Positions 44,321-58,101 of a DNA stretch of 64,000 bases are shown here, one piece after another. Both the position numbers and the translations under genes were made by a program. Origin of the DNA: Candidatus Cloacimonadales bacterium (lineage in GTDB: Bacteria > Cloacimonadota > Cloacimonadia > Cloacimonadales > JAFGVF01); assembly GCA_963678315.1 (NCBI GenBank), contig OY782781.1:1984001-2048000 (forward strand). The letters run 5' to 3'. The notes beneath the pieces are model-generated. The model ran no database searches. It saw only the letters and a program-made list of their open reading frames with translations, and was not told where the DNA came from. Each line of letters opens with the position of its first letter. The stretch's first letter is position 1.

Positions 44321-46519
44321 TTATTTACACCAAAATATTATTTCTTCAATTTCTTCTATTGATGTGTCAGGAGCTACACTTTGTTTATAAATTAAACCAC
44401 TTCCTTTAAACTGGAAACCTATACTCTTATGAGAACAATAATCTACAGCTTCTCTAATTGTTTTCCCTTTAAAGTTTGGTACATTATTGTTTGCTAAATC
44501 AATATTTTGTTTAGCCCCAATCATTACATCCCTTTGATTTTTTGGGAAAACAACACCTGCAGAAGGGAACTGTTTTTGTATAATTTGACTATCATCTATC
44601 AATTCAGTAGTATAACTTATGTCAAGATTTTTAAGTTTGATTTTAGCATCTTTAAGTGTCATTCCTATTAGAGATGGCATAGTTGTGAAATCTTTCTGTT
44701 TTGAAATAAATTCTTCTGTTGTATACGAACCTTTGGAATATAGAATTTTCTTCATTACAGAATCAAAAATTGGTAATGCAGACTGAGAACCATAACGAGA
44801 AGCAAATTTAGGCTTATCGAAGGTGACAACAATTACATATTCTGGATTATCAGCTGGGAAATAGCCTGCAAATGAGGCAGAGTAGTCCCATTTATTTGTA
44901 TGTTTAGTCTTAGAATTTTTGGATTGTGCAGTACCAGTTTTACCAGCAAGTTTAATAATATCGTTTTTGAAATATCTTGCTGTACCATATTCGAATACTT
45001 TTTCAAGATTAGATCTAACAATATTCAGAGGACCTTGTTGAGAGATCTTCCTCAAGGGTTCTCTTTTACTCTCGAATACAATATTATTGTTCTTATCAAG
45101 AATCTTCTTTACTATATGAGGTTTAAGAAGGTAGCCACCATTAGCTAGTGAGCAATAAGCATTAGCTAGTTGCAATTGTGTAACGCCTATTTCTTGACCA
45201 TAAGATATAGAGTGTAAAGAGAATTGAGTCCAATTAGGATAGGATGCAAGAATACCTCTAACTGACTGTGAAATTGGTGTTGGAACTTTTTGACCAAATC
45301 CCATAGTCCTTAACATTGTGTAAAGATTAAAAGGCCCGATTTTTTCAGCTATCTTTGCAATACCAACATTAGATGAATAGGCTATAATTTGTTCTCCATT
45401 CAAAGGGAAATCTTTGGGATGGTCATCACTAATTTCTCTATGAGCATCTCTACCTTTTCCTTCATAATCAGGAACATAAAGAGAACAATCTATTGTTGAT
45501 TCAGGGTCGTAAACATCTAGATTAAGAGCACTTAGCATTGTAAAAGGTTTGAAGGTAGAACCAGGTTCAAAAATATAATTAGCTGGAAGATTAGCATAAC
45601 CTCGGATAACATTTTCATTCTTATCTAATTCATCTCTATCAATGCCAGCCATAACTAATATCTCACCAGTATTAGGGTCCATAACAGTACACATTGCAGC
45701 TTTAGAATCATGCTCAACTATTGCTTCTCTAAGTAATTCTTCAACTTCTCTTTGTAAATTAAAGTCTATAGTAAGATAAATATCTTGTCCCTCTTTATAT
45801 GGCTTAGTTTGAAGTCCTTTCTTAGGTAAAGGCTGACCTTTTGCATCATTATAGACTTCTTTCCAACCAAACTCACCGTTCAACTCCTTATTATAAGCAT
45901 ATTCTATACCATTTAATCCTTCAAGAGTATGTTTAGAATATTTAGGCAAGGTGTTAAGAATTGTATCATTAGAGACTTTTGCCGTTCCAAGTAATCTTAA
46001 TCCCGTTTTATCGCTGGCATGATCTCTTCTATAGTCTGAAAGAGTTACAACTATATCATGTATATCGTTTTCTTCTGCCATCATAAGTAATTGGTCTTTC
46101 TTGGATTCTACAAGCTTTAAAAAGAGAATTGGATTTGTTCTTTCTAATTTTTTAAGGAAATGTTTTTTTGATTTAGATGATACCTGACTGCAAAGTTCTG
46201 CGACTTGATTGCAGTAGTCTTCCATTGCTTTGTCACTTCCAAGTCTTTTTCTAGCTGAAGGTTTGTGTAGTTCTACTTGGTAGTATTTTGTTGTTGTAAC
46301 TAAGAGCTCATCATTGCGATCTAGTATATTCCCTCTAGTGGGGATGATAAACTCTTTTTTAGGGGTTGCTCTTCGGTATCGGTCTTCTGAAAAATCGTAA
46401 ACATCAACTATCTGAATTAGATACAGTTGTGTTATCCAAATTATTCCGACAAGAATAAAAACTAATATTACAAATTTAAATCTAATAGCTTCATTGCTTT
46501 TAGTTTTACTTGAGCTCAT
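44321..46519 (-). CDS. ftsI: Class B penicillin-binding protein FtsI with C-terminal PASTA domains
   Basis: RGNILDRN, EPGSTFK (SxxK), SSN, KTGT; two PASTA-like repeats (MPSLIGMT, VPNFKGKT). Confidence 0.92.
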   Translation of the reverse strand: MSSSKTKSNEAIRFKFVILVFILVGIIWITQLYLIQIVDVYDFSEDRYRRATPKKEFIIPTRGNILDRNDELLVTTTKYYQVELHKPSARKRLGSDKAMEDYCNQVAELCSQVSSKSKKHFLKKLERTNPILFLKLVESKKDQLLMMAEENDIHDIVVTLSDYRRDHASDKTGLRLLGTAKVSNDTILNTLPKYSKHTLEGLNGIEYAYNKELNGEFGWKEVYNDAKGQPLPKKGLQTKPYKEGQDIYLTIDFNLQREVEELLREAIVEHDSKAAMCTVMDPNTGEILVMAGIDRDELDKNENVIRGYANLPANYIFEPGSTFKPFTMLSALNLDVYDPESTIDCSLYVPDYEGKGRDAHREISDDHPKDFPLNGEQIIAYSSNVGIAKIAEKIGPFNLYTMLRTMGFGQKVPTPISQSVRGILASYPNWTQFSLHSISYGQEIGVTQLQLANAYCSLANGGYLLKPHIVKKILDKNNNIVFESKREPLRKISQQGPLNIVRSNLEKVFEYGTARYFKNDIIKLAGKTGTAQSKNSKTKHTNKWDYSASFAGYFPADNPEYVIVVTFDKPKFASRYGSQSALPIFDSVMKKILYSKGSYTTEEFISKQKDFTTMPSLIGMTLKDAKIKLKNLDISYTTELIDDSQIIQKQFPSAGVVFPKNQRDVMIGAKQNIDLANNNVPNFKGKTIREAVDYCSHKSIGFQFKGSGLIYKQSVAPDTSIEEIEEIIFWCK

Positions 46520-46898: not shown

Positions 46899-47805
46899 TT
46901 CTCAATTTTGCACTTCTTGATCGAGGATTCTCAATAATTTCATCCTCGGAAGCTGTGATTGGTTTCTTGTTAATAATTTTTAATGTTGATATTTTTCCAC
47001 AATTGCATATTGGAGATGAGGGCAAACAGGTGCAATCAAGGGCTTCATATCTGAAGAAATCTTTAATAATTTTATCTTCAAGGCTATGATAAGATTCTAC
47101 TACTATTCTTCCACCTGGATTTAAAAGATAAAGAGCATCTTTTAAAACGGATTTAAGAACGTCCATTTCGCCATTTACTTCAATTCTTAATGCTTGATAA
47201 ATTCTTGATAGCATTTTTGTGAAAAACTTAGGATTCATTCTCATGTTCTTTTCTAACAGGGAATTTAAGTCGTTTGAATTTTGAAAATCTATGCTTTTTC
47301 TGTTGTTAACTACTAAATTAGCAATTTTCCGAGAAGCTTTTTCTTCTCCATATTCTCTGAAGATTCTTGTTAAGTGATTCAAATCATAATTGTTCAATAT
47401 ATATGCTGCTGTTAGATCACGTGATTGATCCATACGCATATCTAAAGGGGAAACTTGTGAAAATGAGAAGCCTCTAGCTGCATCATCAATTTGATGTGAA
47501 CTGATACCTAAGTCAAATAGAATACCATCAATCCTGTTTACTTTGTTATAGGCTAATTGGGTTCTTAATTCACTGAAATTACTTTGAATGAAAGTTACCC
47601 TGTCTGCAAACTCTTCAAGTCTCTTCTTTGCAAATGAAATAGCATCAGGATCTTGATCAAAGCAGTATAATCTGGCTGTAGGGTTCGCTTTTAATATACC
47701 TTCTGAATGCATGGCTCCACCAGTCGTAGCATCAACTATGATACCATTATCCCTGATGTTTAATCCATCTATACACTCTCTAAACATTACCGCTTTATGA
47801 TACAT
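46876..47805 (-). CDS. rsmH: 16S rRNA m4C1402 methyltransferase
   Basis: DLGISSHQ, RGFSF, PLDMRMD, QALRIEVN, SYHSLED, NPRSRSAKLR. Confidence 0.97.
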   Translation of the reverse strand: MYHKAVMFRECIDGLNIRDNGIIVDATTGGAMHSEGILKANPTARLYCFDQDPDAISFAKKRLEEFADRVTFIQSNFSELRTQLAYNKVNRIDGILFDLGISSHQIDDAARGFSFSQVSPLDMRMDQSRDLTAAYILNNYDLNHLTRIFREYGEEKASRKIANLVVNNRKSIDFQNSNDLNSLLEKNMRMNPKFFTKMLSRIYQALRIEVNGEMDVLKSVLKDALYLLNPGGRIVVESYHSLEDKIIKDFFRYEALDCTCLPSSPICNCGKISTLKIINKKPITASEDEIIENPRSRSAKLRIAEKKAI

Positions 47806-48260
47806 TATATCCTCACTGATGATTTCATTGTGCTGTTAGCTAACGCTGCAAGAAGATCTTGCTCAATTTGATCTGATTTGTCTTTTGCCCATATTGTGAT
47901 GTGATCTTTTTGTCCGATAAATTTAATATCTTTATCCATTGATAAACTACTCAAGAGTTCTTGGGGAATTCTTACTCTACCGTTTGCTTCAAGTTTTTTT
48001 GAACCTGTTGAGAAGTGTTCCCATACTCTAAGCTTAGCTATATCTATGGAATTACCATTTTCCAAAATATCACAGTATTTGTAAAAAACACTTTCAGGAA
48101 ACAAGATTAAACACTCTTCGCCACCTCTGGTGATAATGATGTTTTTTGAGTCACCATAGAATTTCAACTCTTTAACGAATATCTTAGGTATAACAATTCT
48201 ACGGTCTGTTATTGTACCGTAAAATGTACCATAAAATCTTCCTTGGTTGTTTTGATTCAT
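47805..48260 (-). CDS. mraZ: Division/cell-wall cluster transcriptional repressor MraZ (divergent)
   Basis: Two AbrB-like repeats (RRIVIP..; NGRVRIP..FIGQKDHITIW); first gene of dcw. Start placed at ATG 48260 with GGAG RBS. Confidence 0.82.
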   Translation of the reverse strand: MNQNNQGRFYGTFYGTITDRRIVIPKIFVKELKFYGDSKNIIITRGGEECLILFPESVFYKYCDILENGNSIDIAKLRVWEHFSTGSKKLEANGRVRIPQELLSSLSMDKDIKFIGQKDHITIWAKDKSDQIEQDLLAALANSTMKSSVRI

Positions 48261-48290
48261 TAGGGAACTCCTATTCATTATTATTATCTT

Positions 48291-48316
48291 GTGACTACTT
48301 GTGACAGAATATGACT
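48291..48316 (-). promoter_or_regulatory. Putative MraZ operator 1: three GTCA boxes at 10-bp period
   Basis: TGAC at 48292, 48302, 48312 on + (GTCA-N6 repeats on -), just upstream of the mraZ start. Confidence 0.6.
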
Positions 48317-48575
48317 TTTTACAACAAATGTCAATTATTATTATATAATTTATTATTAATATAACTATATTTAACAAAGAATGCTTTTATAAAAGGCTTT
48401 TAGCAATAATCAAATATATATCATTATGATTAATTATTGCCAAATTATTGTGTAAAATTATACATATTATTAGCTTTAGGTCATCTTGAGACATATCTTA
48501 ATCTACTGAAAAACAATATAGTATGGTTGATATACATTATAAGAGGGATTAAATTGCATAAAAGTGTATAATTTT

Positions 48576-48639
48576 GTCATCATTTTGACTAAAAATGACT
48601 AGGATTTAAATGGTTTTACTAACCATGACCAATTATGAC
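48576..48639 (-). promoter_or_regulatory. Putative MraZ operator 2: distal phased GTCA array
   Basis: TGAC at 48586, 48596, 48626, 48636, degenerate TTAC at 48616, inverted GTCA at 48576; all in one 10-bp register. Confidence 0.5.
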
Positions 48640-48648
48640 CAAGTGCAC

Positions 48649-49250
48649 CCTTACTCCCCTCCTTGAAAAATCGGCTTTTTTTCAATGAGGCTAGTATGTT
48701 AGGAGTTGGGGGTGAATGTATTAGAGACTGGTAACTGGGATCGCCAGCCTCTGAGCTGGCTTCACTTAGAACGTAGTTATAAGTGAATTTGTAGATAGCT
48801 TTAGAAAGAAGTCTCAGAAAATGGAGTGTAAGCATCCACCGATAGGTTGAACACGGTTCATGCTTACGCAAATATGCTGCTTTGTCCTGAAGGGACATAT
48901 CTCTACAGAGCCCATGATTTCAATCGTGGGTGATAGAAGGATTTCAGACTTGAGAAGTAGTAAGAACCTGGCTAGGCAGATTTAAGAATGTTTAAGAGTT
49001 TAGAGGTTTAATTGTTTATTTGTTGATAGATTTATTGATTAATTGTTTAGGATTTGAATTCGTGAAGATTGGGGTTATTAGTAGCTGATTTACTAATTTG
49101 TATTTAGTCCCGAAGGGACGGTATATATTAGCATGGGGTCTTGTACCCCATGTTACATTATATAAACGAATTGAGTCCCGAAGGGACGACATAGATTTTA
49201 AATAGAATGTGAATAATGAAATTACACTGAATATCCAGATGAAACTTGAA
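48649..49250 (+). repeat. Modular hairpin mosaic repeat, copy 3 (A, heptamer, B, F, C, E, tail)
   Basis: A 48649-48696, B 48734-48794, F 48826-48868, C 48883-48930, E 49106-49193; tail ttttaaatagaa.gtgaataatgaaa shared with copy 2. Confidence 0.85.
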
Positions 49251-49274: not shown

Positions 49275-49304
49275 AAAAAAAGAAAGCACCCTGTTAGAGT
49301 GCTT
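49275..49304 (-). terminator. Intrinsic terminator ending the PqqD/ATP-grasp operon
   Basis: Minus strand aAGCACTCT-aac-AGGGTGCTttctttttt. Confidence 0.75.
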
Positions 49305-49336: not shown

Positions 49337-50521
49337 TTATTTCAAAATAACTTGTTTGCTAGTAACAAACTTAGATTTTGGTAATTCAACTCTAAGGAAA
49401 TATATACCTGAAGGCAATGACTCCTTCAGTAAACTTGATAGCTCTAAGCTAGCACTTTTAGATGGATTACTAAATTCTGAAATCTTTTGACCCTTTAAAT
49501 TATAAACTGAAACAGAAATAATACTTTCATTAGATTTCACAGTGAAAGAGTTTCTAGACGGATTAGGGTAGCTAGTAATGGAAGGAAGAGCATTCTCAAT
49601 GTTTTGCTCATGGTTGGAGACTACAGGAATATATTCATAGGAATACTTAGTAGAGTTTTCCCAATTGCTAGTATCATTTGACCATAGTTGAGTTATAAGA
49701 AGGTCAGCGTATATGTAATCAGAATACTGATAAGACGCTAGGCTGTAGTTAATCCATTCATTATTTTCTGCAGTCAGACCTGTAACATTATTTAAAATCA
49801 TTGCATCATTATAAGAGTAAACATACTTTGAATAATCTTGCCAGGACTCATTACTCCAAGTTTGCCATATTTCATTTATAAGATAACTATTAATGTCCCT
49901 CTCATAGTTACATTTTGAATAATTATCCCAATTTACACCATCGTTGGAAACTTCCCAAAGCTCATAAATCTTATATCCTAAGAGATTGTATTCATAACTG
50001 ACTCTGTACTGCTCATTATCTTTTCCAGAAGAAAAATAAACCCATTCTTCATCAACAAGAATTCCATCTTCGTAAGTATAATTAATTGTTAATGAATCTT
50101 GCCAAGCAGTATTAACCCATTTTTGTAGATTATAGCTTTCAACTAAATTATCATCATTATATGAGTAATTCTCTTGTCTATAATTATAGAGAGTAGGAAT
50201 GTAAATTTGATATAGCATATTTGTTAAATTATTATTAGTGTCGTATGTGTAAGTATAGTATTCAAAATCAGTCCATATCTCTTCAATATTCTTATCAACA
50301 TCTATTGATGTAACATTATTTACATTATATGTATAGATACTATTATAGATATCTTCCCATTGATTATCTAGGTATTCTGAATAAGTATACTCTGATATAA
50401 GTCCTTCAGTACTCCTAGTGTTGTAAATGTCATGAGTTGGCTTAAGAATCAATGTCTTATCAATTGCAGTGATTGAAAGAATACTAAGAACGATACATAA
50501 AATTAAGAATGTCTTTTTCAT
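49337..50521 (-). CDS. Secreted Tyr/Trp-rich beta-repeat protein with T9SS-like CTD
   Basis: Signal peptide; roughly 30-aa repeats of the type 'YTYD.N.N......W....W....Y.Y'; CTD 'SYPNP...VYNLKGQKI...SGIYFL..KQVILK'. Confidence 0.75.
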   Translation of the reverse strand: MKKTFLILCIVLSILSITAIDKTLILKPTHDIYNTRSTEGLISEYTYSEYLDNQWEDIYNSIYTYNVNNVTSIDVDKNIEEIWTDFEYYTYTYDTNNNLTNMLYQIYIPTLYNYRQENYSYNDDNLVESYNLQKWVNTAWQDSLTINYTYEDGILVDEEWVYFSSGKDNEQYRVSYEYNLLGYKIYELWEVSNDGVNWDNYSKCNYERDINSYLINEIWQTWSNESWQDYSKYVYSYNDAMILNNVTGLTAENNEWINYSLASYQYSDYIYADLLITQLWSNDTSNWENSTKYSYEYIPVVSNHEQNIENALPSITSYPNPSRNSFTVKSNESIISVSVYNLKGQKISEFSNPSKSASLELSSLLKESLPSGIYFLRVELPKSKFVTSKQVILK

Positions 50522-51435
50522 TTATTATCTCCGATTATAAATTTGCCTGGATTATTTACCAAAACTAGAAAGCAATTTGCGATTATTCTAGTCTGAGTAT
50601 ATATATTAATCTCATCACTTAGTTCATATATCAACTCTGAACCATCAGAAAATATCTGTTTAAGCTGAAGTTCAGCTGGGTCAAGTTCTGGAGGGAAAGG
50701 AATGTATAGGATAGGATGAGAAGAGTTTGTAGGGTTATTAAGTATAAGATGGTGAAATTGGTCATAGGGATATGAATCAAACCATATTTCATATTCTGCA
50801 ATATATTCTGTATTATTATGCTTGATAAATGAAATGTCCTGTACGTTATAGGGTAAGATTCTATCCGGCATAATGAACTGAGCTTGATTGATAGATAGGT
50901 TTATAGATTCTGAAGTCCCCTTTCTATAGGAGATTGAATCAGAAACTGATTCACCAACTGTAGAATTATATACTCCAGATCCCCCAAAGTAGAAGTAGCA
51001 ATAACCATTATCATAATATGAATAATAGGCTTGTAGTTCATCACTGATGGGGGTATTATAAAACCTATGTATACCAGTTCCATAAAAATTAAGGTTGGTA
51101 AATGGATTTGATTTAATCGCCATAAGTGGAAATTCATCTATGAAAGGAATCCAAACACCATTGTTAGATAGGAATGATATATTGTAATATTCAGAAGCAT
51201 CAGTCAAATTATATTGTTGGTTTATATAGTCAAAACCTTCAAGGTAATCAACCTTTTCTACAAGTATCTGTAAGCTATCGTTACCAAAATCATACAAACC
51301 ATCCTGGTCAATATAAATTGCTTCATCTATGATCTTAAAAGGTGATACTGCTGATGGTAAAGACTCATCTTCTCTAATATTACAAGCAGCCAAGGTAACA
51401 AGTGATAATAATATAAATAAATATCTAGAAAGCAT
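50518..51435 (-). CDS. Hypothetical lipoprotein
   Basis: Lipobox LAA-C; overlaps both neighbours. Confidence 0.7.
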   Translation of the reverse strand: MLSRYLFILLSLVTLAACNIREDESLPSAVSPFKIIDEAIYIDQDGLYDFGNDSLQILVEKVDYLEGFDYINQQYNLTDASEYYNISFLSNNGVWIPFIDEFPLMAIKSNPFTNLNFYGTGIHRFYNTPISDELQAYYSYYDNGYCYFYFGGSGVYNSTVGESVSDSISYRKGTSESINLSINQAQFIMPDRILPYNVQDISFIKHNNTEYIAEYEIWFDSYPYDQFHHLILNNPTNSSHPILYIPFPPELDPAELQLKQIFSDGSELIYELSDEINIYTQTRIIANCFLVLVNNPGKFIIGDNK

Positions 51436-52627
51436 AACTTACCCCACTTCCATAACAAGTATCTTCTAAGTCTGTAATCTTGTATCTAAGATATATTTTG
51501 CTCTTGATATAACTGATATCTATTCCTACTGTGTGCTGATTGTTCTCAATATCAAAATCATCATAAACAAGCATATTCTCATCAACTAGGAAGTTTGATT
51601 TGCCATAAGAAAGACTATACATCAAATTTATATAATCTGTTACTTGATAGTTTACTTTAAACTTAGCTGAAAGTTCATGCTTATCAAAGTTAGGAGTAAT
51701 ATAATCAAGATACTGATAATTAATAGAAGATGAAAGTTGGAGTTTTGAGAAGACAGGAGAATATCCTAAAGTAACTTGACTAACAGATAATGATTCCCAG
51801 TAAGAATAACTAGCTAGGAGAGATAAGATTGAGGAAAATTCTCTATGCTGAAGAGTAGATGTTATCTTAGAGGATGCTAAATAACTATCGTATAGCTTAT
51901 CGTAATCACCATCTAAATAACCAATCGCTAATTCAAAGCTAGTGTCGGCTATGTAATATGCTAAATCAATATTATAATAGTCTCGACTTATCTCATCATC
52001 ATTATATCTATTATAGTTCAATGCAATGCTTGCGTTAACAAAGTCAATAAAGTAAGCTGAATTAACTGTTTGTGTCTTTGAAGAAGCTTGATAGAATAAT
52101 TCTATATAATTATAAAGATAGTTATTCTTAAAAAACAGTTCTTCATCTAAAGGAGTAGAATCAAGGTAGTCGCTACTGATTAAATCAGTGTAAAGCATAG
52201 CATTCCTAATATCTCCTTTATAGTATTTTGACCATGCAATACCTGAATACTCAATATCTTTACTATCTGAATCCTTCAAGGCTTTATGATAATAATACAA
52301 ACTTTGAGAATAGTCCTTCTGCATAAAGAGAGCATAAGCATGTATTCTATCTAAGAGATAATTATCAATAGAGCTTGGGATGCTTGAGAAATGATTAATA
52401 ATTTCACTAAACTTCTGTTGTGCAGATAAAGAACTTAATAGCCCTATCCAACAAGCTTCATTATATGAATCTTCATTTAACAATGTTTTAAACTGTGCCT
52501 GAGAAAGTTGATATAATCCCATATTATAGTTTCTTTGTGCTTCATCCAATGTTAATGAAAAGATAAGGCTATATGACAACAGAAATAGTAGTAATACAAT
52601 CCTCTGCTTACTTAAATTTACTTTCAT
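51425..52627 (-). CDS. TPR protein with probable C-terminal outer-membrane beta-barrel
   Basis: Signal peptide; N-terminal TPR-like helices; C-half of alternating aromatic strands ending GSGVSYAF (terminal Phe beta-signal). Confidence 0.6.
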   Translation of the reverse strand: MKVNLSKQRIVLLLFLLSYSLIFSLTLDEAQRNYNMGLYQLSQAQFKTLLNEDSYNEACWIGLLSSLSAQQKFSEIINHFSSIPSSIDNYLLDRIHAYALFMQKDYSQSLYYYHKALKDSDSKDIEYSGIAWSKYYKGDIRNAMLYTDLISSDYLDSTPLDEELFFKNNYLYNYIELFYQASSKTQTVNSAYFIDFVNASIALNYNRYNDDEISRDYYNIDLAYYIADTSFELAIGYLDGDYDKLYDSYLASSKITSTLQHREFSSILSLLASYSYWESLSVSQVTLGYSPVFSKLQLSSSINYQYLDYITPNFDKHELSAKFKVNYQVTDYINLMYSLSYGKSNFLVDENMLVYDDFDIENNQHTVGIDISYIKSKIYLRYKITDLEDTCYGSGVSYAF

Positions 52628-53213
52628 AGGTTTTTACAAATTGATTATCAGGACTTAACTTTCTTAGTTTAGTAAAAATCTTCTTAGCGTCACTTAACTG
52701 ATTAGACTCAACTAAAGCACTAAGATAATATCCCATAGCGTCTAAGTTATAAGTATAAATCTCGTAGCCAGTTCCATAGTATTTAGCAGATTCAGCATAA
52801 TTGCCTTTAGCATAGTAAGAATATGCAATCTTACTAATAGCAAGATAATCTTTAGGGATTACTAATAGAACCTTGTTAGCTGTTTTAATAGTGTTATCCC
52901 AATCACCTAGATAGTAATAACTTGTTAATAATCCTTGTAAAGCATCAAAATTACTGTCTATCTCATAGCTCTTAGCGTAATAAGTTGTTGCATCTTGATA
53001 ATTACCTAATGAAATGTATAACCAACCTATTCTAAGGTTGAAGAATGCATTGTTTGGCTCTAAATGGCTTGCTGCTAACATATTTGTAAGTGCAACTTGG
53101 TAATTACCATTATATTCGTTTGTATAAGATGACCTGACATAATCATCAGTTTTACTTGCAAATACTATTGTCGAAATCATTAGAACTATTATTAGTAAAG
53201 TAATCTTTTTCAT
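52608..53213 (-). CDS. Exported tetratricopeptide repeat protein
   Basis: Signal peptide; TPR motifs LRIGWLYISLGNYQDA, YYLGDWDN, AYSYYAKGNYAESA. Confidence 0.8.
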   Translation of the reverse strand: MKKITLLIIVLMISTIVFASKTDDYVRSSYTNEYNGNYQVALTNMLAASHLEPNNAFFNLRIGWLYISLGNYQDATTYYAKSYEIDSNFDALQGLLTSYYYLGDWDNTIKTANKVLLVIPKDYLAISKIAYSYYAKGNYAESAKYYGTGYEIYTYNLDAMGYYLSALVESNQLSDAKKIFTKLRKLSPDNQFVKTYESKFK

Positions 53214-53218
53214 ATATT

Positions 53219-55366
53219 TTAATCCATCCTTAAATTAGCTTTGATAACTGTTTTATTATCTTTGTTTAATATCTCAATATCTGTAAAACCTGTCAATTCT
53301 TTTAAAGTTATCTTGCCTGAGTAACTTGAGATTGACTTGTTTAGAACACTGAAATTATTCTTAAATGAAGTTGTTACATTGTCCTTTGTTGGGGTTGATT
53401 TAGCTTTGTATTCAAGCTTTGAAAACTTGAATATTGACTGTAGAAATAGTAGAGTGCTCTCAAGAGTCGGGTTAGCAAGAATTGAATAAGGGGGATAATC
53501 ATTCCAGTTCAACTCTTCATCCTTATATAGTGGTAATCTACAAAGAGATAAGGCTAATCCATGGAGAGCAGATTTCTTGTTACCTGTGAAGTTTAGTACA
53601 TTAAATATGCCATCATAAACAGAAAACTCTAAAGAAGCATTTCTATCAGACTTTATAAAGAATGAACCATAAAGATTAACATCAACCTTCCATTTCTCAG
53701 TAAACTTCTTTCCGTAAGCTTCTACTTCATAAACAGCTTCATCATCTACTTTAAGGTGCAGTACATCTTGTAAGTAGTTAACAGGGAAAAGGGGAGATAC
53801 TATATCATCCTTTTTAGGTATGTCATAAGCTTTAAACATATAGTCATCAGCCTTTTTCTTAAAGTTAATTAAGAAAGACTTCACGGTAACACTACCAGGC
53901 TCTGCTCCATACTGAATATTAAAATGCAAATGTGGAACTGCTGACCTACCAGAATTACCGACTACACCAAGTTTAGCACCTTTAGCAACCCATTCACCAT
54001 TCTTAAATTTAAGACTACCCTTTTTTAAGTGACAATACATTGAGTAAAGTCCATAGCCATGATTCAAGACAATGAAGTTACCCCAGCGTTCTCTTGTATT
54101 AATCTGTCCAACAGGGTTATCTGCAATCCCATCAGCAAGATTTACAACCCAACCACCAGCTGAACTGAGAACAGGTTTATTGTAGCAGAAGTAATCTGTA
54201 ACTACTTTACCATCGTTCTTAGCTTGATAGCCTTCTTTATCCTTGATCTCGAAATCCCATGCATAAGCCCATTGCTCTTTATGTGTTATTTCTCCATGGT
54301 TACCTTGAGTGATGGTCCATTCCCCAGTAAATGGTAAATAGAATTGTGGACCTCCTCCATCATAGAATCGTTTAATTCTAGAAAAATAGAATTTTAAATT
54401 CTCTTCTGGAAGCATAACACCAAAGTCAGCTATGTAAGGGTTTTTGTTTTGTAGTCTCATTCTTAATGCGATAATAATGAAGATAACTGTTAGATTCATT
54501 GGGAAAGCATAAGGTGCTACATAATAATTCTCGAACAAGAATTGCATAGCGTAAGAGGTAATAAAGCCTAAGAAACAAGCAAATATAGCTATTAAATACG
54601 ACCTCAAAGATGGGATTAAAAATACACCACCAATACTCATAGCAATAAGCATTAAGTTGAATGACGTGTATGATATTTGATATAATCCGATATCCTGAAA
54701 GTCTGTAAGGTTAAATCTATTTACAAGGAAGTAGCTCAAATAAAAGCCCATCATGGTTAGAATAAAACCTATTCTAGAGGTAAGAATAAGTGCAATAAGA
54801 ACCAGTATTCCAGCTAATATATAGGGCTGGAAGAATATACTACCTAAACTTTTCAGGTAGAAGTTTATCATATTGCTAGATGTAGGCATTATATTAATAA
54901 TCGCCTCACGTTCTTGACTAACCAAGAACTGTCCAACTCTCATCATAAAGAAGGAAAGGAGGATTGCAACAACCGAGAAGGATAAACTCATCGAGGGCAT
55001 TCTTAGATAAGTCGTTGTAAGATAGTTTAAAGCAATGAATAGTAAGAGTGCTATCAAGGAACCACTAACTAAAGCAAGCCAATATTCCAAGCTTCCTATT
55101 AGCTGATTAGGCATATAGAAACCTACCCCTAAACTTACCAGCATGCTATTAAATGCTAGTAATCCTGATTTAGAATTCCAGTCTTCAAAGTTTAACAATC
55201 TTGCAACAACTAATGCTATTATTGTTCCTAAAATACCAGTTATACCAGTTCTAGGTTCAACAAGAGTACTTAATAGAATCAATAACCCTACTATATATTT
55301 ATCGCTAAATAAAATAGTAGAGTATGTATTGATTATAGATTTACTTAGGTTAAGTATTATATTCAT
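53219..55366 (-). CDS. Urea-transporter-family membrane domain fused to an M23 metallopeptidase domain
   Basis: N-terminal polytopic domain with duplicated UT-like motifs (STILF/GSIFF; GLLAFNSML/TSFNLML; SLSF/AFPM); C-terminal M23 motifs TH..WAYAWD, YCHL, GNSGRSAVPHLHF. Confidence 0.82.
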   Translation of the reverse strand: MNIILNLSKSIINTYSTILFSDKYIVGLLILLSTLVEPRTGITGILGTIIALVVARLLNFEDWNSKSGLLAFNSMLVSLGVGFYMPNQLIGSLEYWLALVSGSLIALLLFIALNYLTTTYLRMPSMSLSFSVVAILLSFFMMRVGQFLVSQEREAIINIMPTSSNMINFYLKSLGSIFFQPYILAGILVLIALILTSRIGFILTMMGFYLSYFLVNRFNLTDFQDIGLYQISYTSFNLMLIAMSIGGVFLIPSLRSYLIAIFACFLGFITSYAMQFLFENYYVAPYAFPMNLTVIFIIIALRMRLQNKNPYIADFGVMLPEENLKFYFSRIKRFYDGGGPQFYLPFTGEWTITQGNHGEITHKEQWAYAWDFEIKDKEGYQAKNDGKVVTDYFCYNKPVLSSAGGWVVNLADGIADNPVGQINTRERWGNFIVLNHGYGLYSMYCHLKKGSLKFKNGEWVAKGAKLGVVGNSGRSAVPHLHFNIQYGAEPGSVTVKSFLINFKKKADDYMFKAYDIPKKDDIVSPLFPVNYLQDVLHLKVDDEAVYEVEAYGKKFTEKWKVDVNLYGSFFIKSDRNASLEFSVYDGIFNVLNFTGNKKSALHGLALSLCRLPLYKDEELNWNDYPPYSILANPTLESTLLFLQSIFKFSKLEYKAKSTPTKDNVTTSFKNNFSVLNKSISSYSGKITLKELTGFTDIEILNKDNKTVIKANLRMD

Positions 55367-55375
55367 AATTATTAA

Positions 55376-56728
55376 TTATAATGATCTTAAATATTCAGGT
55401 ATTTTCTCTTGTCTGTTGATATCTTCTAAAACTTCTTTGCTTCTGATTTCATAAGTTTCACCTGTTTCTGAAACAAGAACTACAGCAGGTCTGTACTCAA
55501 TAAACTGCATCCATTGGGTCACATTGTAAGCACCTACTGGATGTACAATAAGTTTATCACCAACTTTTAAATCAGGATAAGGTGTAGCATGTTTAACTAT
55601 GTCGATATTCATACATAGAGGACCATAGAAGACAGTTGATAGAGAGGTTCCTGAAGTTGGTTGTGCAGGAAGAACTTTAAGATTATACCACCAAGTAGTA
55701 AATAAGATATTTACACCTGCGTCAATAATTACAGCTCTTTGACCAGAAGCTAAGTCTTTTTTAGCTAATACAGAGGTAATAAGAGTTCCTGATTCGTCAA
55801 CCAGTGTTCTACCTGTTTCTAGAATCAGTTTTGGTTTTTCATCGATAGCAAACTTTGATTCATTAAATGCTTTTCCTATTGCTGAAGCGTATTGGTCATA
55901 AGAAGGTGAAGCAAATTCCCCTGGTGTATACTGATTATGAAGAGTGTTCTTAGAAGCGAATCCACCACCTAAATCAATGTATTCAACTGTAATACCTAGA
56001 TTATCTTTGATATTTTGAGCTAATGTTAAGAGCTTTGAAGCTGAAATATAGTAAGGGTTTGCATCAAGCATAAATGTTCCGATATGAGCATGAAGACCTA
56101 TTAGTTCGAGTTTATCTGCAGTAATTAATCTTTGAACAGTTCTGTAAGCTTCGCCATTATCATAGTTGAATCCAAATCTTTGCCATTGAGGATATATTCC
56201 TGTGTCCATGTTGATTCTAATTGCAACTTTAGGTTTTATGCCTAGTTCTTCTGCAACTTCTTCAAGTAAAAGAAGCTCATTGAAATGGTCTATATGCACA
56301 GTTACATCATCTTCTAGAACTGTTATTAAATCTTCCTTTCTTTTTCCAGGACCATTAAATATAATATCTTTGCCTTCAACACCTAAATGTTTTGCCATAT
56401 CATATTCCATGATACTAACTATCTCTGCTTTTGCTCCCTCTTGATGGAATATTGAGCAGATTGCGCCCAAATAGTTAGTTTTGTATGACCACGATACTTC
56501 TGAATTAGGATAATATTCTCTTATAATGGACTGAAGCTCTCTGTAACTATCACGCATTTTATTCTCTGAAAAGACAAAGAGTGGAGAACCATATTTCTTA
56601 ACTAATTCAGTAACTTCTATACCGTTAACATGTGTCTGGTAGTTAATTCTATTTTTACTATATGCTATTTTATTGCTTATGCCTGCTTGATTTCTTTGTA
56701 TTCTAGGTGGATTATATTTCTTTTTCAT
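55376..56728 (-). CDS. PLP-dependent fold-III (Orn/DAP/Arg family) decarboxylase with N-terminal extension
   Basis: YGSPLFVF, SYKTN (PLP lysine), IFNGPGK, HAHIGT, DLGGGF, ETGR, GPLCMNID, VGAY. Substrate unknown; not called lysA. Confidence 0.88.
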   Translation of the reverse strand: MKKKYNPPRIQRNQAGISNKIAYSKNRINYQTHVNGIEVTELVKKYGSPLFVFSENKMRDSYRELQSIIREYYPNSEVSWSYKTNYLGAICSIFHQEGAKAEIVSIMEYDMAKHLGVEGKDIIFNGPGKRKEDLITVLEDDVTVHIDHFNELLLLEEVAEELGIKPKVAIRINMDTGIYPQWQRFGFNYDNGEAYRTVQRLITADKLELIGLHAHIGTFMLDANPYYISASKLLTLAQNIKDNLGITVEYIDLGGGFASKNTLHNQYTPGEFASPSYDQYASAIGKAFNESKFAIDEKPKLILETGRTLVDESGTLITSVLAKKDLASGQRAVIIDAGVNILFTTWWYNLKVLPAQPTSGTSLSTVFYGPLCMNIDIVKHATPYPDLKVGDKLIVHPVGAYNVTQWMQFIEYRPAVVLVSETGETYEIRSKEVLEDINRQEKIPEYLRSL

Positions 56729-57803
56729 TTTTTACTCCTTTAATTAATTCTCCCATTGATGATAATTGTCCCATTACATCGATGCTGGAAATAATATCTT
56801 CTGCGTGTCTAATGAATATAGTTCCTGTTTTGAACTCTTTCATTGGATCTACATGTTCATTTAAGGCTAATTTAAAGACCATGGCTGGTAGATTCTGTCC
56901 AGCACCTTCTGCTAGTTTTATCCATGCTGGGAATCTTGGATTTATCTCAATCAAATAGAAGTTATCTTGGTGGTCTTTAATTAATTCAAGTTCACATGGA
57001 CCTCTCCATGATATTGCCTTAATAACATCTTCTGCAAATTTGTTCAATAATGGATTGTTTACAACAACGCCACCAAATCCTTTACCTTTATCAGTGATGA
57101 TTAGTTTTCTTTGTGGAATCATTCCAAGAATGTTACCTTGACCATCACCAACTAATGATATATTGAATTCATCCCCAATTACAGCTTCTTGTGCTAGTAC
57201 TGGAAGCCCCCATTTGTTCTTTATAAGATTGAAGTAATATAGTACATCATTAATGTTGTTAGCCTTATAAGCTTCATAGAAGTTACCTTTTATATACATA
57301 GGAAAATTCATCTTATATTCAAGGCTGTATACTTGAGCTATATCAGTGACATATTCAGTGTGGGGAACATTAATTCCCTTGTCTGGTAGAATTCTAAATA
57401 TTTTAGACTTGTCACGCATTAAGAGTTGTTCTTCAGAAGGAAGGTAAACTTTAATTCCTCTCTTGTTCAATTCTTTCTCAAGTCTAATATAGCCAATGAT
57501 TTCAGAATCTAAAGTTGGAATAAGAACATCAATCTTAGTTTTAGTAAGTATGTAATCTAGCCTGGATAATATTGCGTCTTTACCGTCAGCTGGGTAAGGC
57601 ATCTGATAAATTTCTTGAGCTAAATCATCAACATAAACACCAGACTCAAGATTGTCATAGATTAAACCAACAATCTTCCCTTTAAAACCAGCATTTCTAA
57701 TAGATCTGATTATAGGAACACCTGGTTGAGGATTATCGCCAGTCTTAAGACCTGTCACTGCTAAAACTAAATCTTCATGAGATAATTTAATACACATTTC
57801 CAC
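56712..57803 (-). CDS. ATP-grasp ligase (CarB-like stand-alone)
   Basis: LIPTLDSE, RDK, FPMYIKG, QEAVIGDE, C-terminal 'YLIEINPRFPAW'. Confidence 0.85.
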   Translation of the reverse strand: MEMCIKLSHEDLVLAVTGLKTGDNPQPGVPIIRSIRNAGFKGKIVGLIYDNLESGVYVDDLAQEIYQMPYPADGKDAILSRLDYILTKTKIDVLIPTLDSEIIGYIRLEKELNKRGIKVYLPSEEQLLMRDKSKIFRILPDKGINVPHTEYVTDIAQVYSLEYKMNFPMYIKGNFYEAYKANNINDVLYYFNLIKNKWGLPVLAQEAVIGDEFNISLVGDGQGNILGMIPQRKLIITDKGKGFGGVVVNNPLLNKFAEDVIKAISWRGPCELELIKDHQDNFYLIEINPRFPAWIKLAEGAGQNLPAMVFKLALNEHVDPMKEFKTGTIFIRHAEDIISSIDVMGQLSSMGELIKGVKNEKEI

Positions 57804-58047
57804 TATCCACTAAATTATAGTTTTCTAATACTCTAAAAAAGTATTCAACATCACTAACCGCTTCATCGTAGTTAGTCTCATATTCTGAAACTAAATACTG
57901 AGCTATTTCTTCAATATCTTTGCCAGCAATCAAGTTTTCTAATATGCAAATTGCTGTGTCGTTAGCATTATAACTATAACCGGTAGCAGGATCAAAAATA
58001 AATCCGTTTTGGTTTATAGCCAAAGAGTCTAGTTTATTAGTTCTCAT
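57787..58047 (-). CDS. PqqD-family / RiPP recognition element (RRE) protein
   Basis: 86 aa; beta3-alpha3 pattern 'GFIFDPATGYSYNANDTAICILENL..GK..EEIAQYL..EYE...EAVSDV..F...L..YNL'; AGAGGT RBS. Confidence 0.82.
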   Translation of the reverse strand: MRTNKLDSLAINQNGFIFDPATGYSYNANDTAICILENLIAGKDIEEIAQYLVSEYETNYDEAVSDVEYFFRVLENYNLVDSGNVY

Positions 58048-58083
58048 AAATACCTCTGCATTAATTTATTTGAAAATAGATAA

Positions 58084-58101
58084 TGCAGTTTGTATTCCAA
58101 A
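58084..58101 (-). promoter_or_regulatory. Candidate sigma54 (-24/-12) promoter of the PqqD/ATP-grasp operon
   Basis: Minus strand ttTGG-AATACAAACT-GCa, exact GG-N10-GC; implied start near 58073, just upstream of the RBS. Confidence 0.55.

Follow-up and report, generated by a model that had tools for sequence, protein, structure and literature searches.

It has been described that the fold-III, pyridoxal phosphate (PLP)-dependent decarboxylases FigC, SbnH, AcsE, MccE and BtrK form one clade with the diaminopimelate (DAP) decarboxylases and D-ornithine decarboxylase, and that these five enzymes act on amino acids attached to larger groups (PMC7857480). According to the same source, an ATP-grasp ligase and a fold-III decarboxylase act on a tethered glutamate in the butirosin system BtrI/BtrJ/BtrK (PMC7857480). 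In actinobacterial lasso peptides the leader carries the motif YxxPxL, which B1 proteins recognise (PMC6784204), and both termini of urea transporter (UT) proteins are intracellular (PMC11589576). Here we analyse a locus which resembles each of these systems in some respects. It lies in a window of 64,000 nucleotides (the whole stretch analysed, C1:1984001-2048000) from the 2.99-Mb single-contig genome of a Candidatus Cloacimonadales bacterium, and consists of eight co-oriented open reading frames (ORFs), g1 to g8, which fill positions 49337-58047 of the minus strand. At its centre stands a conserved module of five genes coding for a PqqD-family protein, an ATP-grasp ligase, a fold-III decarboxylase, a fusion of a UT-fold channel with an M23 metallopeptidase (UT::M23) and a tetratricopeptide repeat (TPR) protein. 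We give roughly an even chance to the reading that the region is a single operon built around this undescribed module, and that the module works by ligation, decarboxylation and export, with the product handed to the UT-fold channel.

The initial annotation, made from the sequence of the window, had described tightly packed genes, and this was borne out by the coordinates: all eight lie on the minus strand with overlaps of 17, 17, 20, 11 and 4 nt or gaps of 9 and 5 nt, so that no spacing exceeds 9 nt. All its domain calls were likewise upheld by Pfam and NCBIfam searches and, in the case of g6, by the predicted structure. To define the conserved part, two sets of loci were compared. An ATP-grasp profile scan of species-representative genomes gave at least 565 confirmed loci, the best 80 of which were analysed, and an independent metagenome set gave at least 578 confirmed loci, 80 of which were analysed. 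The best 80 genome loci came from Cloacimonadota, Ignavibacteria/Chlorobiota, Bacteroidota and Myxococcota. When gene presence was scored by tblastn (E <= 1e-4), g3 was detected in 78 of them, g4 in 68, g1 in 67, g5 in 56, g6 in 7, g7 in 3 and g8 in 1, most misses being at contig ends, and clustering of the ORFs showed an identical gene order across the four phylum-level groups. In the metagenome loci, ligase and decarboxylase genes were adjacent in 76 of the 77 loci holding both, the PqqD gene was upstream of the ATP-grasp gene in all 67 loci with room for it, and UT::M23 was downstream in 51 of 53 with room. The arrangement of the core genes is far beyond chance. Since the same order recurs in both 80-locus sets, the unit under selection comprises PqqD, ATP-grasp, decarboxylase and UT::M23, usually followed by TPR; the core is thus smaller than eight genes. 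Of the co-occurrence across genomes on which the initial annotation had staked its eight-gene system, the part concerning the core holds widely, whereas g7 and g8 are lineage-specific.

Within the Cloacimonadales, full-length UT::M23 was found in 18 of 41 genomes, including all 12 of the window's family (the window genome counted), with a patchy distribution in the others, and a g3-type gene adjoined it by coordinates in 16 of these 18. In ten relatives' loci taken from Cloacimonadales genomes, g1 to g4 were syntenic in 10/10, g5 in 9/10 and g6 in 7/10. The outer-membrane and secreted partners of the core vary by lineage: in Ignavibacteria loci the TPR gene is followed by one for a 275-aa protein and PqqD is preceded by a protein with a type IX secretion system (T9SS) tail, and Myxococcota loci contain additional TPR proteins. 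The claim that no characterised pathway has this gene set agrees with our literature searches, in which no published description of the combination was found; supplementary files were outside their scope, and a prediction in Iyer et al. 2009 (amidoligases) is possible. In the available parts of PMC12419801 and PMC10352776 the cassette is not mentioned.

Two observations concern individual copies of the cassette. At one relative's locus (L014:2511-4360) the ATP-grasp gene is split by an insert of about 1.85 kb encoding a Mutator/MULE-type transposase, and the cassette is probably inactivated there. In Bacteroides thetaiotaomicron, used as a control genome, a PqqD match over the cut-off and a UT match below the cut-off were obtained; this genetically tractable gut species may carry a divergent copy.

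The product of g3 (55376..56728, minus strand) is a 450-aa PLP decarboxylase with the alanine-racemase fold (fold III), of the FigC/BtrK/MccE/DAP decarboxylase clade, and matches PF02784 (Orn_Arg_deC_N, 118.9 bits) and PF00278 (Orn_DAP_Arg_deC, 47.1 bits). Its best solved match is 7kh2 (FigC/FslC) with 211 bits, as compared with 150 for DAP decarboxylases and 111 for BtrK. It scored below the cut-offs of both the LysA equivalog TIGR01048 (230.6 bits, cut-off 297.9) and the FigC/FslC model NF041039 (243.8 bits, cut-off 500). The PLP lysine K83 and the catalytic cysteine C372 were invariant in 57 orthologues, in which T344, W347 and the blocks GPLCMNID and TQWMQF were also invariant or nearly so. 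In the DAP decarboxylases, the distal end of DAP is bound by Arg343 of the specificity helix together with an acidic neighbour of the catalytic cysteine, and FigC has Thr and Met at these two positions (PMC7857480). In HMMER alignments, T344 of g3 (Thr in 56 of the 57 orthologues) replaces the DAP-binding Arg, and M373 (Met in all 57) follows C372, features which g3 shares with FigC. The residues proposed in the same paper to hold citrate in FigC, H357, R387 and N389 (PMC7857480), align with I375, Q405 and M407 of g3. Since they are not kept, the group tethered in g3 should be something other than citrate, in a more aromatic pocket.

The initial annotation had considered the case that g3 is the genome's only LysA and acts as a plain DAP decarboxylase. 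Its first half was found, as g3 is the only LysA-like match in the window genome, in which dapA and dapF are present, but the residues of its active site speak against a plain DAP decarboxylase. Only 1 of 41 Cloacimonadales genomes gave a match above the LysA cut-off, and the window genome gave none; lack of LysA therefore seems common in the Cloacimonadales, which, judged from these searches, may largely do without the last step of lysine synthesis. Relatives have a second LysA-like gene, a candidate for the true LysA; its product has a Cys-Asp pair like ornithine/lysine decarboxylases, scored 168-190 bits and is probably not LysA either.

The likeness to FigA/FigC (FslA/FslC, Francisella rhizoferrin), SbnH (staphyloferrin B) and AcsE lies in an amide or ester ligation followed by decarboxylation at the still-free alpha-amino-acid end. 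However, the FigA/FigC pathways use a siderophore synthetase of the type that works independently of nonribosomal peptide synthetases (NIS synthetase), whereas the ligase here is an ATP-grasp enzyme, and the FigA/FigC, SbnH and AcsE pathways have neither a PqqD protein nor UT::M23 nor a TPR-barrel protein. With butirosin the locus shares, besides the pairing of ligase and decarboxylase, an accompanying gene for a small protein (about 87 aa); this protein has a PqqD fold here, not an acyl carrier fold, and lacks a conserved C-terminal acceptor. Moreover, BtrK is a weaker match than FigC and the butirosin system has no membrane channel. The analogy to BtrJ/BtrK that had been drawn from the sequence is thus supported in kind, by the FigC match and by natural ligase-decarboxylase fusions, but not with respect to a carrier-bound substrate, as no phosphopantetheinyl carrier-protein domain was detected in the eight products or in any conserved neighbour.

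The ligase itself, g2 (56712..57803, minus strand), has 363 aa, overlaps g1 by 17 nt and matches PF15632 (ATPgrasp_Ter, 40.5 bits, cut-off 29.1), PF02655 (ATP-grasp_3, 27.6 bits, cut-off 23.2) and PF02786. In 40 orthologues 53 columns were invariant, among them an EINPRFPAW block and the residues E286 and N288, which we take to be metal ligands. Solved relatives are distant: 2pn1, an unannotated structure, comes first and is followed by carbamoyl-phosphate synthetase and biotin carboxylases. When longer relatives of g2 were searched for, 36 proteins were obtained, half of which (18) carry ATP-grasp and decarboxylase Pfam domains together. In a further 16, roughly twice as long as g2, the only domains matched were of the ATP-grasp type; they may be tandem double ATP-grasp proteins, to judge from these matches, measure 703-748 aa and include one from Colwellia psychrerythraea. 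The six fused ATP-grasp::decarboxylase proteins examined retained the pocket motifs of the g3 type, and one fused relative gave a weak match to a PylC-like N-terminal domain. At one fused locus the PqqD gene ends at the start codon of the fusion, and no UT::M23 was present within 8 kb downstream. From the natural fusions and the adjacency of the genes, ligase and decarboxylase appear to be functionally linked.

The first gene, g1 (57787..58047, minus strand), codes for an 86-aa protein of the PqqD family, i.e. of the type of the recognition elements (RREs) of peptides that are made on ribosomes and modified after translation (RiPPs), with a PF05402 score of 37.5 bits (cut-off 23.4). Its best NCBIfam model is a lasso-peptide PqqD chaperone, and it scored below the cut-offs of both lasso B1 chaperone models (NF033530, 36.7 bits versus 70; NF033536, 18.4 versus 80). 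The PqqD core residues G15, F18 and G23 are conserved in 41 orthologues, a comparison in which no conserved C-terminal acceptor was seen, and g1 is the sole PqqD-family match in the window genome. Among the longer proteins no fused PqqD forms were scored, which is weak evidence.

The decarboxylase carries a putative partner for this protein. Its N-terminal extension of about 30 residues lies outside the HMMER alignments with FigC and the DAP decarboxylases and contains, at codons 5-10, the leader-like motif YNPPRI (56699..56716, minus strand), which follows the pattern aromatic-xx-P-x-aliphatic (Y5-x-x-P8-x-I10). The pattern [YW]xxPx[ILVM] was present in this tail in all 57 orthologues and all 10 relatives, versus 20 of 1046 other ORFs. 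It was also found in 67 of 70 decarboxylases from metagenome loci, the remaining three having Phe at the aromatic position, and it was kept in the inter-domain linker of all six ATP-grasp::decarboxylase fusions; it was absent from the two second paralogues. The likeness to the lasso systems is that the best model for g1 is a lasso chaperone and that its putative partner carries Y/W-xx-P-x-I/L/V, but here the motif is on an enzyme tail or fusion linker instead of a precursor peptide, neither a B2 protease nor a lasso cyclase is present, and g1 remains below the lasso cut-offs. Judged from this conservation, the N-terminal tail of the decarboxylase is likely the partner of the PqqD protein. The function first proposed for g1, delivery of a separate leader peptide, is probably not the right one, given that a conserved leader-like tail is found on the decarboxylase itself. 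Complex prediction for the PqqD protein with the ATP-grasp enzyme gave a score of 0.23 against a mark of 0.32 and is evidence neither way. A conserved tail lysine (NK[FY]G) was considered as a carrier site and dropped because the block is missing in one group of fusion proteins.

The fusion protein g4 (53219-55366, minus strand) has Pfam matches to UT and Peptidase_M23, and its structure was predicted with a pLDDT (predicted local distance difference test) of 92.8. Residues 1-334 (54365..55366, minus strand) form the UT-fold channel domain (PF03253, 153.7 bits), which in the predicted structure aligned with human UT-A3 at a VIA-align Z of 36 and a root-mean-square deviation (rmsd) of 2.4 A over 307 residues; across UT-A3, UT-B and dvUT the Z values were 35-36 (35 to 3k3f) and the rmsd 2.4-2.6 A. 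The fold of the urea transporters is therefore matched over the whole core, and the Pfam UT score is well above its cut-off. On the other hand, sequence identity to them is 19-21%, the score against the urea transporter equivalog TIGR03441 is 81.2 bits with a cut-off of 274.6, no urease or urea-metabolism genes are in the cassette, and g4 is fused to an M23 domain with intact catalytic residues plus a further beta domain. The M23 domain (residues 336-515; 53822..54361, minus strand; PF01551, 60.3 bits) resembles in its predicted structure the domains of DipM, EnpA, Csd and LytM (Z 13-14), and H362, D371, H446, H479 and H481 show no variation among 54 sequences and are, by analogy, presumably its metal and catalytic residues. 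The predicted C-terminal beta-rich domain (residues 530-715; 53222..53779, minus strand) shows a moderate likeness to 4fvs (Z 10.1) and to open barrels of the lipovitellin/ApoB type (Z 8-9), and an Atlas feature search with it returned nothing above 0.77. After the last UT helix come conserved arginines, and the sequence beyond it contains no other hydrophobic segment. Since both termini of UT proteins are intracellular (PMC11589576), we infer that the M23 domain faces the cytoplasm and not the cell wall, which would place it beside the soluble enzymes.

From these features the following sequence of events can be proposed. The ATP-grasp enzyme would link the side chain of an amino acid to the carboxylate or amine of a partner, and the FigC-like decarboxylase would then strip the alpha-carboxyl group from the tethered amino acid, leaving an amine-bearing amide. 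This would follow the ligate-then-decarboxylate logic of FigA/FigC, SbnH and BtrJ/BtrK. The PqqD protein would dock on the aromatic-xx-P-x-aliphatic tail of the decarboxylase and so assemble the enzymes, no separate precursor peptide being presented. At the cytoplasmic mouth of the UT-fold channel, the M23 domain would process or release the product, which would leave through the channel and meet the periplasmic TPR protein and the TPR/beta-barrel protein of the outer membrane. We put forward more tentatively, and rate somewhat below an even chance, the broader proposal that an RRE has been re-used as an enzyme-assembly adaptor, and that ligase, decarboxylase and M23 peptidase form a metabolon which, docked to the membrane on a UT-fold pore, makes and exports an amine-bearing amide in at least four phylum-level groups. 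Neither the use of an RRE as an enzyme adaptor nor such a channel-peptidase fusion was found described in the literature searched.

Both ends of the eight-gene cluster carry the signals that had been noted in the initial annotation, a sigma54-like motif and a terminator. The former is a -24/-12 element, TGGAATACAAACTGC (58085..58099, minus strand), which matches the pattern TGG-N9-TGC 38 nt 5' of the start codon of g1; the spacing of its GG and GC parts fits the canonical -24/-12, and rpoN is present in the window genome. In the whole window the pattern matches 24 times versus 13.9 expected by chance, so a lone site upstream of g1 means little. Of 19 Cloacimonadota loci compared, 13 have TGG-N9-TGC at a distance of 77-181 nt upstream of the conserved PqqD motif, as do 5 of 43 loci from outside this group, with a chance expectation, taken from the window's own frequency, of about 0.05 per 260 nt. 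In this lineage the operon appears, from the recurrence of the motif, to be under sigma54 control. Just 3' of g8 there is an intrinsic-terminator-like hairpin (49284..49304, minus strand) with a 9-pair stem followed by the T-run TCTTTTTTTC. The upstream neighbour of the operon is an MltD-like lytic transglycosylase gene, identified by Pfam and NCBIfam. Downstream, about 950 nt without a family-bearing ORF separate the operon from mraZ, rsmH, ftsL and a penicillin-binding protein (PBP) gene.

Several points weigh against the proposed operon and mechanism. The single operon is read from the gene layout and its co-transcription is a prediction; a wastewater sequencing run of uncertain kind yielded five short contigs at 95-99% identity, none spanning a gene junction, and three RNA runs under another organism label gave zero reads, results which speak neither for nor against expression or co-transcription. 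The ligase g2 is only distantly related to any characterised ligase and, its nearest solved relatives being bicarbonate-activating enzymes, may catalyse a different reaction. For the docking of the PqqD protein on the decarboxylase tail, motif conservation is the argument; for the cytoplasmic placement of the M23 domain, it is homology to the UT topology. A pore of the urea type is narrow. UT::M23 was missing downstream in 2 of the 53 metagenome loci with room, including the one fused locus, so the channel is not obligatory. Finally, nothing in the analysis points to a particular substrate, product, amino acid or partner.

The genes following the channel bear on the main rival explanation. The TPR gene g5 (52608..53213, minus strand) codes for a 201-aa protein with an N-terminal signal-like segment and matches to several TPR Pfam families. 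The 400-aa product of g6 (51425..52627, minus strand) had no Pfam match; its model (pLDDT 90) shows an outer-membrane protein in which a predicted periplasmic TPR domain is followed by a 14-stranded beta-barrel. The best Foldseek matches of the model were BcsC (9b8a, E 8.5e-12) and PelBC (9h80, E 1.1e-8), with low TM-scores of 0.35-0.37, and its Atlas neighbours were TPR and YaiO-barrel clusters. The predicted architecture thus resembles that of BcsC, PelB/PelC and PgaA, but the barrel of g6 is smaller, no sequence-family match to polymer exporters was obtained for g6 (PgaA scored 18.5 bits, against g5 only), and the core contains no polysaccharide synthase.

Such exporters suggest that the system could instead decorate an envelope polymer or peptidoglycan: an amine-bearing or activated group would cross the inner membrane and be attached to an exopolysaccharide, to peptidoglycan or to a surface protein. 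We regard this as unlikely, though it is the strongest of the alternatives. Besides the likeness of g6 to BcsC and PelBC, several gene contexts favour it. In one Cloacimonadota lineage (3 of 90 loci), MBOAT and DUF1574-like genes are inserted inside the operon, between UT::M23 and the TPR genes, a pairing familiar from polymer O-acylation systems. Some Ignavibacteria loci have an Acyl_transf_3 membrane acyltransferase downstream, and some have SLBB, sugar-dehydratase and transglutaminase-like genes upstream. The M23 domain has a fold that is typically seen in peptidases acting on peptidoglycan, and the operon of the window sits between the MltD-like gene and the mraZ/rsmH/ftsL/PBP cluster. However, these cell-wall flanks are shared only with the nearest genus (an MltD neighbour was found in 2 of 80 loci), the acyltransferases are lineage-specific, and the conserved core includes neither a glycosyltransferase nor a polymerase. 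The placement of the M23 domain on the cytoplasmic side also speaks against decoration, as do the low TM-scores and the 14 strands of the g6 barrel.

Less probable still, and in our judgement improbable, is a classical RiPP pathway with a precursor encoded elsewhere, in which PqqD would bind the leader, the ATP-grasp enzyme and the decarboxylase would modify the peptide and M23 would cut the leader. The bona fide PqqD protein, nearest to lasso chaperones, and a peptidase with intact catalytic residues fit such a pathway, and fusions of a peptidase with the exporter occur in several RiPP systems. In contrast, no conserved small ORF (ATG starts, 12-75 aa) was found within 2.5 kb upstream and 6 kb downstream of the cassettes examined, where the scan turned up only antisense or lineage-private fragments, and the arrangement is kept without a peptide gene in four phylum-level groups. 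The leader-like motif is on the decarboxylase itself in every orthologue, and a UT-fold pore is not, to our knowledge, a known peptide exporter. No radical SAM or pqq gene was detected among the ORFs scanned in the cluster and its flanks, and together with the small-ORF scan this confirms the absence of precursor peptide, radical SAM and pqq genes reported at the outset. PqqC was not found in the window genome, a weak blank since the control genomes were silent too.

That g3 is simply the genome's DAP decarboxylase (LysA) for lysine synthesis, with unrelated neighbours, is very improbable: it is the only LysA-like match beside dapA and dapF and reaches 230.6 bits with TIGR01048, but this is under the cut-off, as in all but one of the Cloacimonadales genomes, the DAP-binding Arg and acidic residue described in PMC7857480 are replaced by Thr and Met in the orthologues, and g3 orthologues were found only together with the cassette, some relatives being fused to the ligase.

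Compared with the proposed ligation, decarboxylation and export module, the last two genes of the operon are of narrow distribution. The 305-aa product of g7 (50518..51435, minus strand) is a putative lineage-specific lipoprotein with a signal ending in cysteine and no family match beyond a weak one to LPAM_1; its C-terminal part matches the ends of 904-1227-aa proteins in other Cloacimonadota. The likewise lineage-specific g8 (49337..50521, minus strand) codes for a 394-aa repeat protein with a C-terminal T9SS sorting domain, which passed the cut-offs of PF18962 (Por_Secre_tail, 42.1 bits versus 27) and TIGR04183 (42.8 versus 23); in other lineages, unrelated proteins with a T9SS tail flank the cassette. 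With g7 in 3 and g8 in 1 of the 80 genome loci, the suspicion that both might be incidental is supported, and by this distribution they are passengers of the window's own genus-level group. As for the MBOAT/DUF1574-like insertion, it was seen at L013:9115-11461, L020 and L031, and the window genome carries a homologous pair elsewhere (C1:1502016-1504381; 44% and 28% identity).

Some further observations were made in the region between g8 and the division genes. The gap between g8 and mraZ contains an Rfam match to the small RNA Acido-Lenti-1 (49106-49152, minus strand; 44.7 bits, gathering score 37). Such matches number 30 in the window genome, and 16 reach or exceed the gathering score, which points to a multi-copy element in this genome of the Cloacimonadota. 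The same gap (48900-49220, minus strand) has three copies of a short hairpin rich in GC, with the sequence GTCCCTTCGGGAC or one close to it; one copy is part of the Acido-Lenti-1 match, and a 99-aa ORF at 48599-48898 has no family match. Read from a TTG start, the mraZ ORF (47805-48377, minus strand) would code for 190 aa; as the match to the MraZ models begins only near residue 48, its true start probably lies further downstream. The PBP of the division cluster (44321-46519, minus strand) ends in two C-terminal PASTA domains (51.6 bits), an arrangement more usual in Gram-positive bacteria.

The cassette is common, with at least 565 loci in genomes and at least 578 in metagenomes of Cloacimonadota, Ignavibacteria, Bacteroidota and Myxococcota. 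For annotation, it carries the warning that its decarboxylase is not LysA, even in genomes which have no other LysA-like gene. It offers a test of whether RiPP recognition elements can act as docking modules for enzymes, and solving it would give a function to the fusion of a UT-fold channel with an M23 peptidase and would extend the biology of abundant bacteria of gut, digesters and sediments by a metabolite or an envelope modification.

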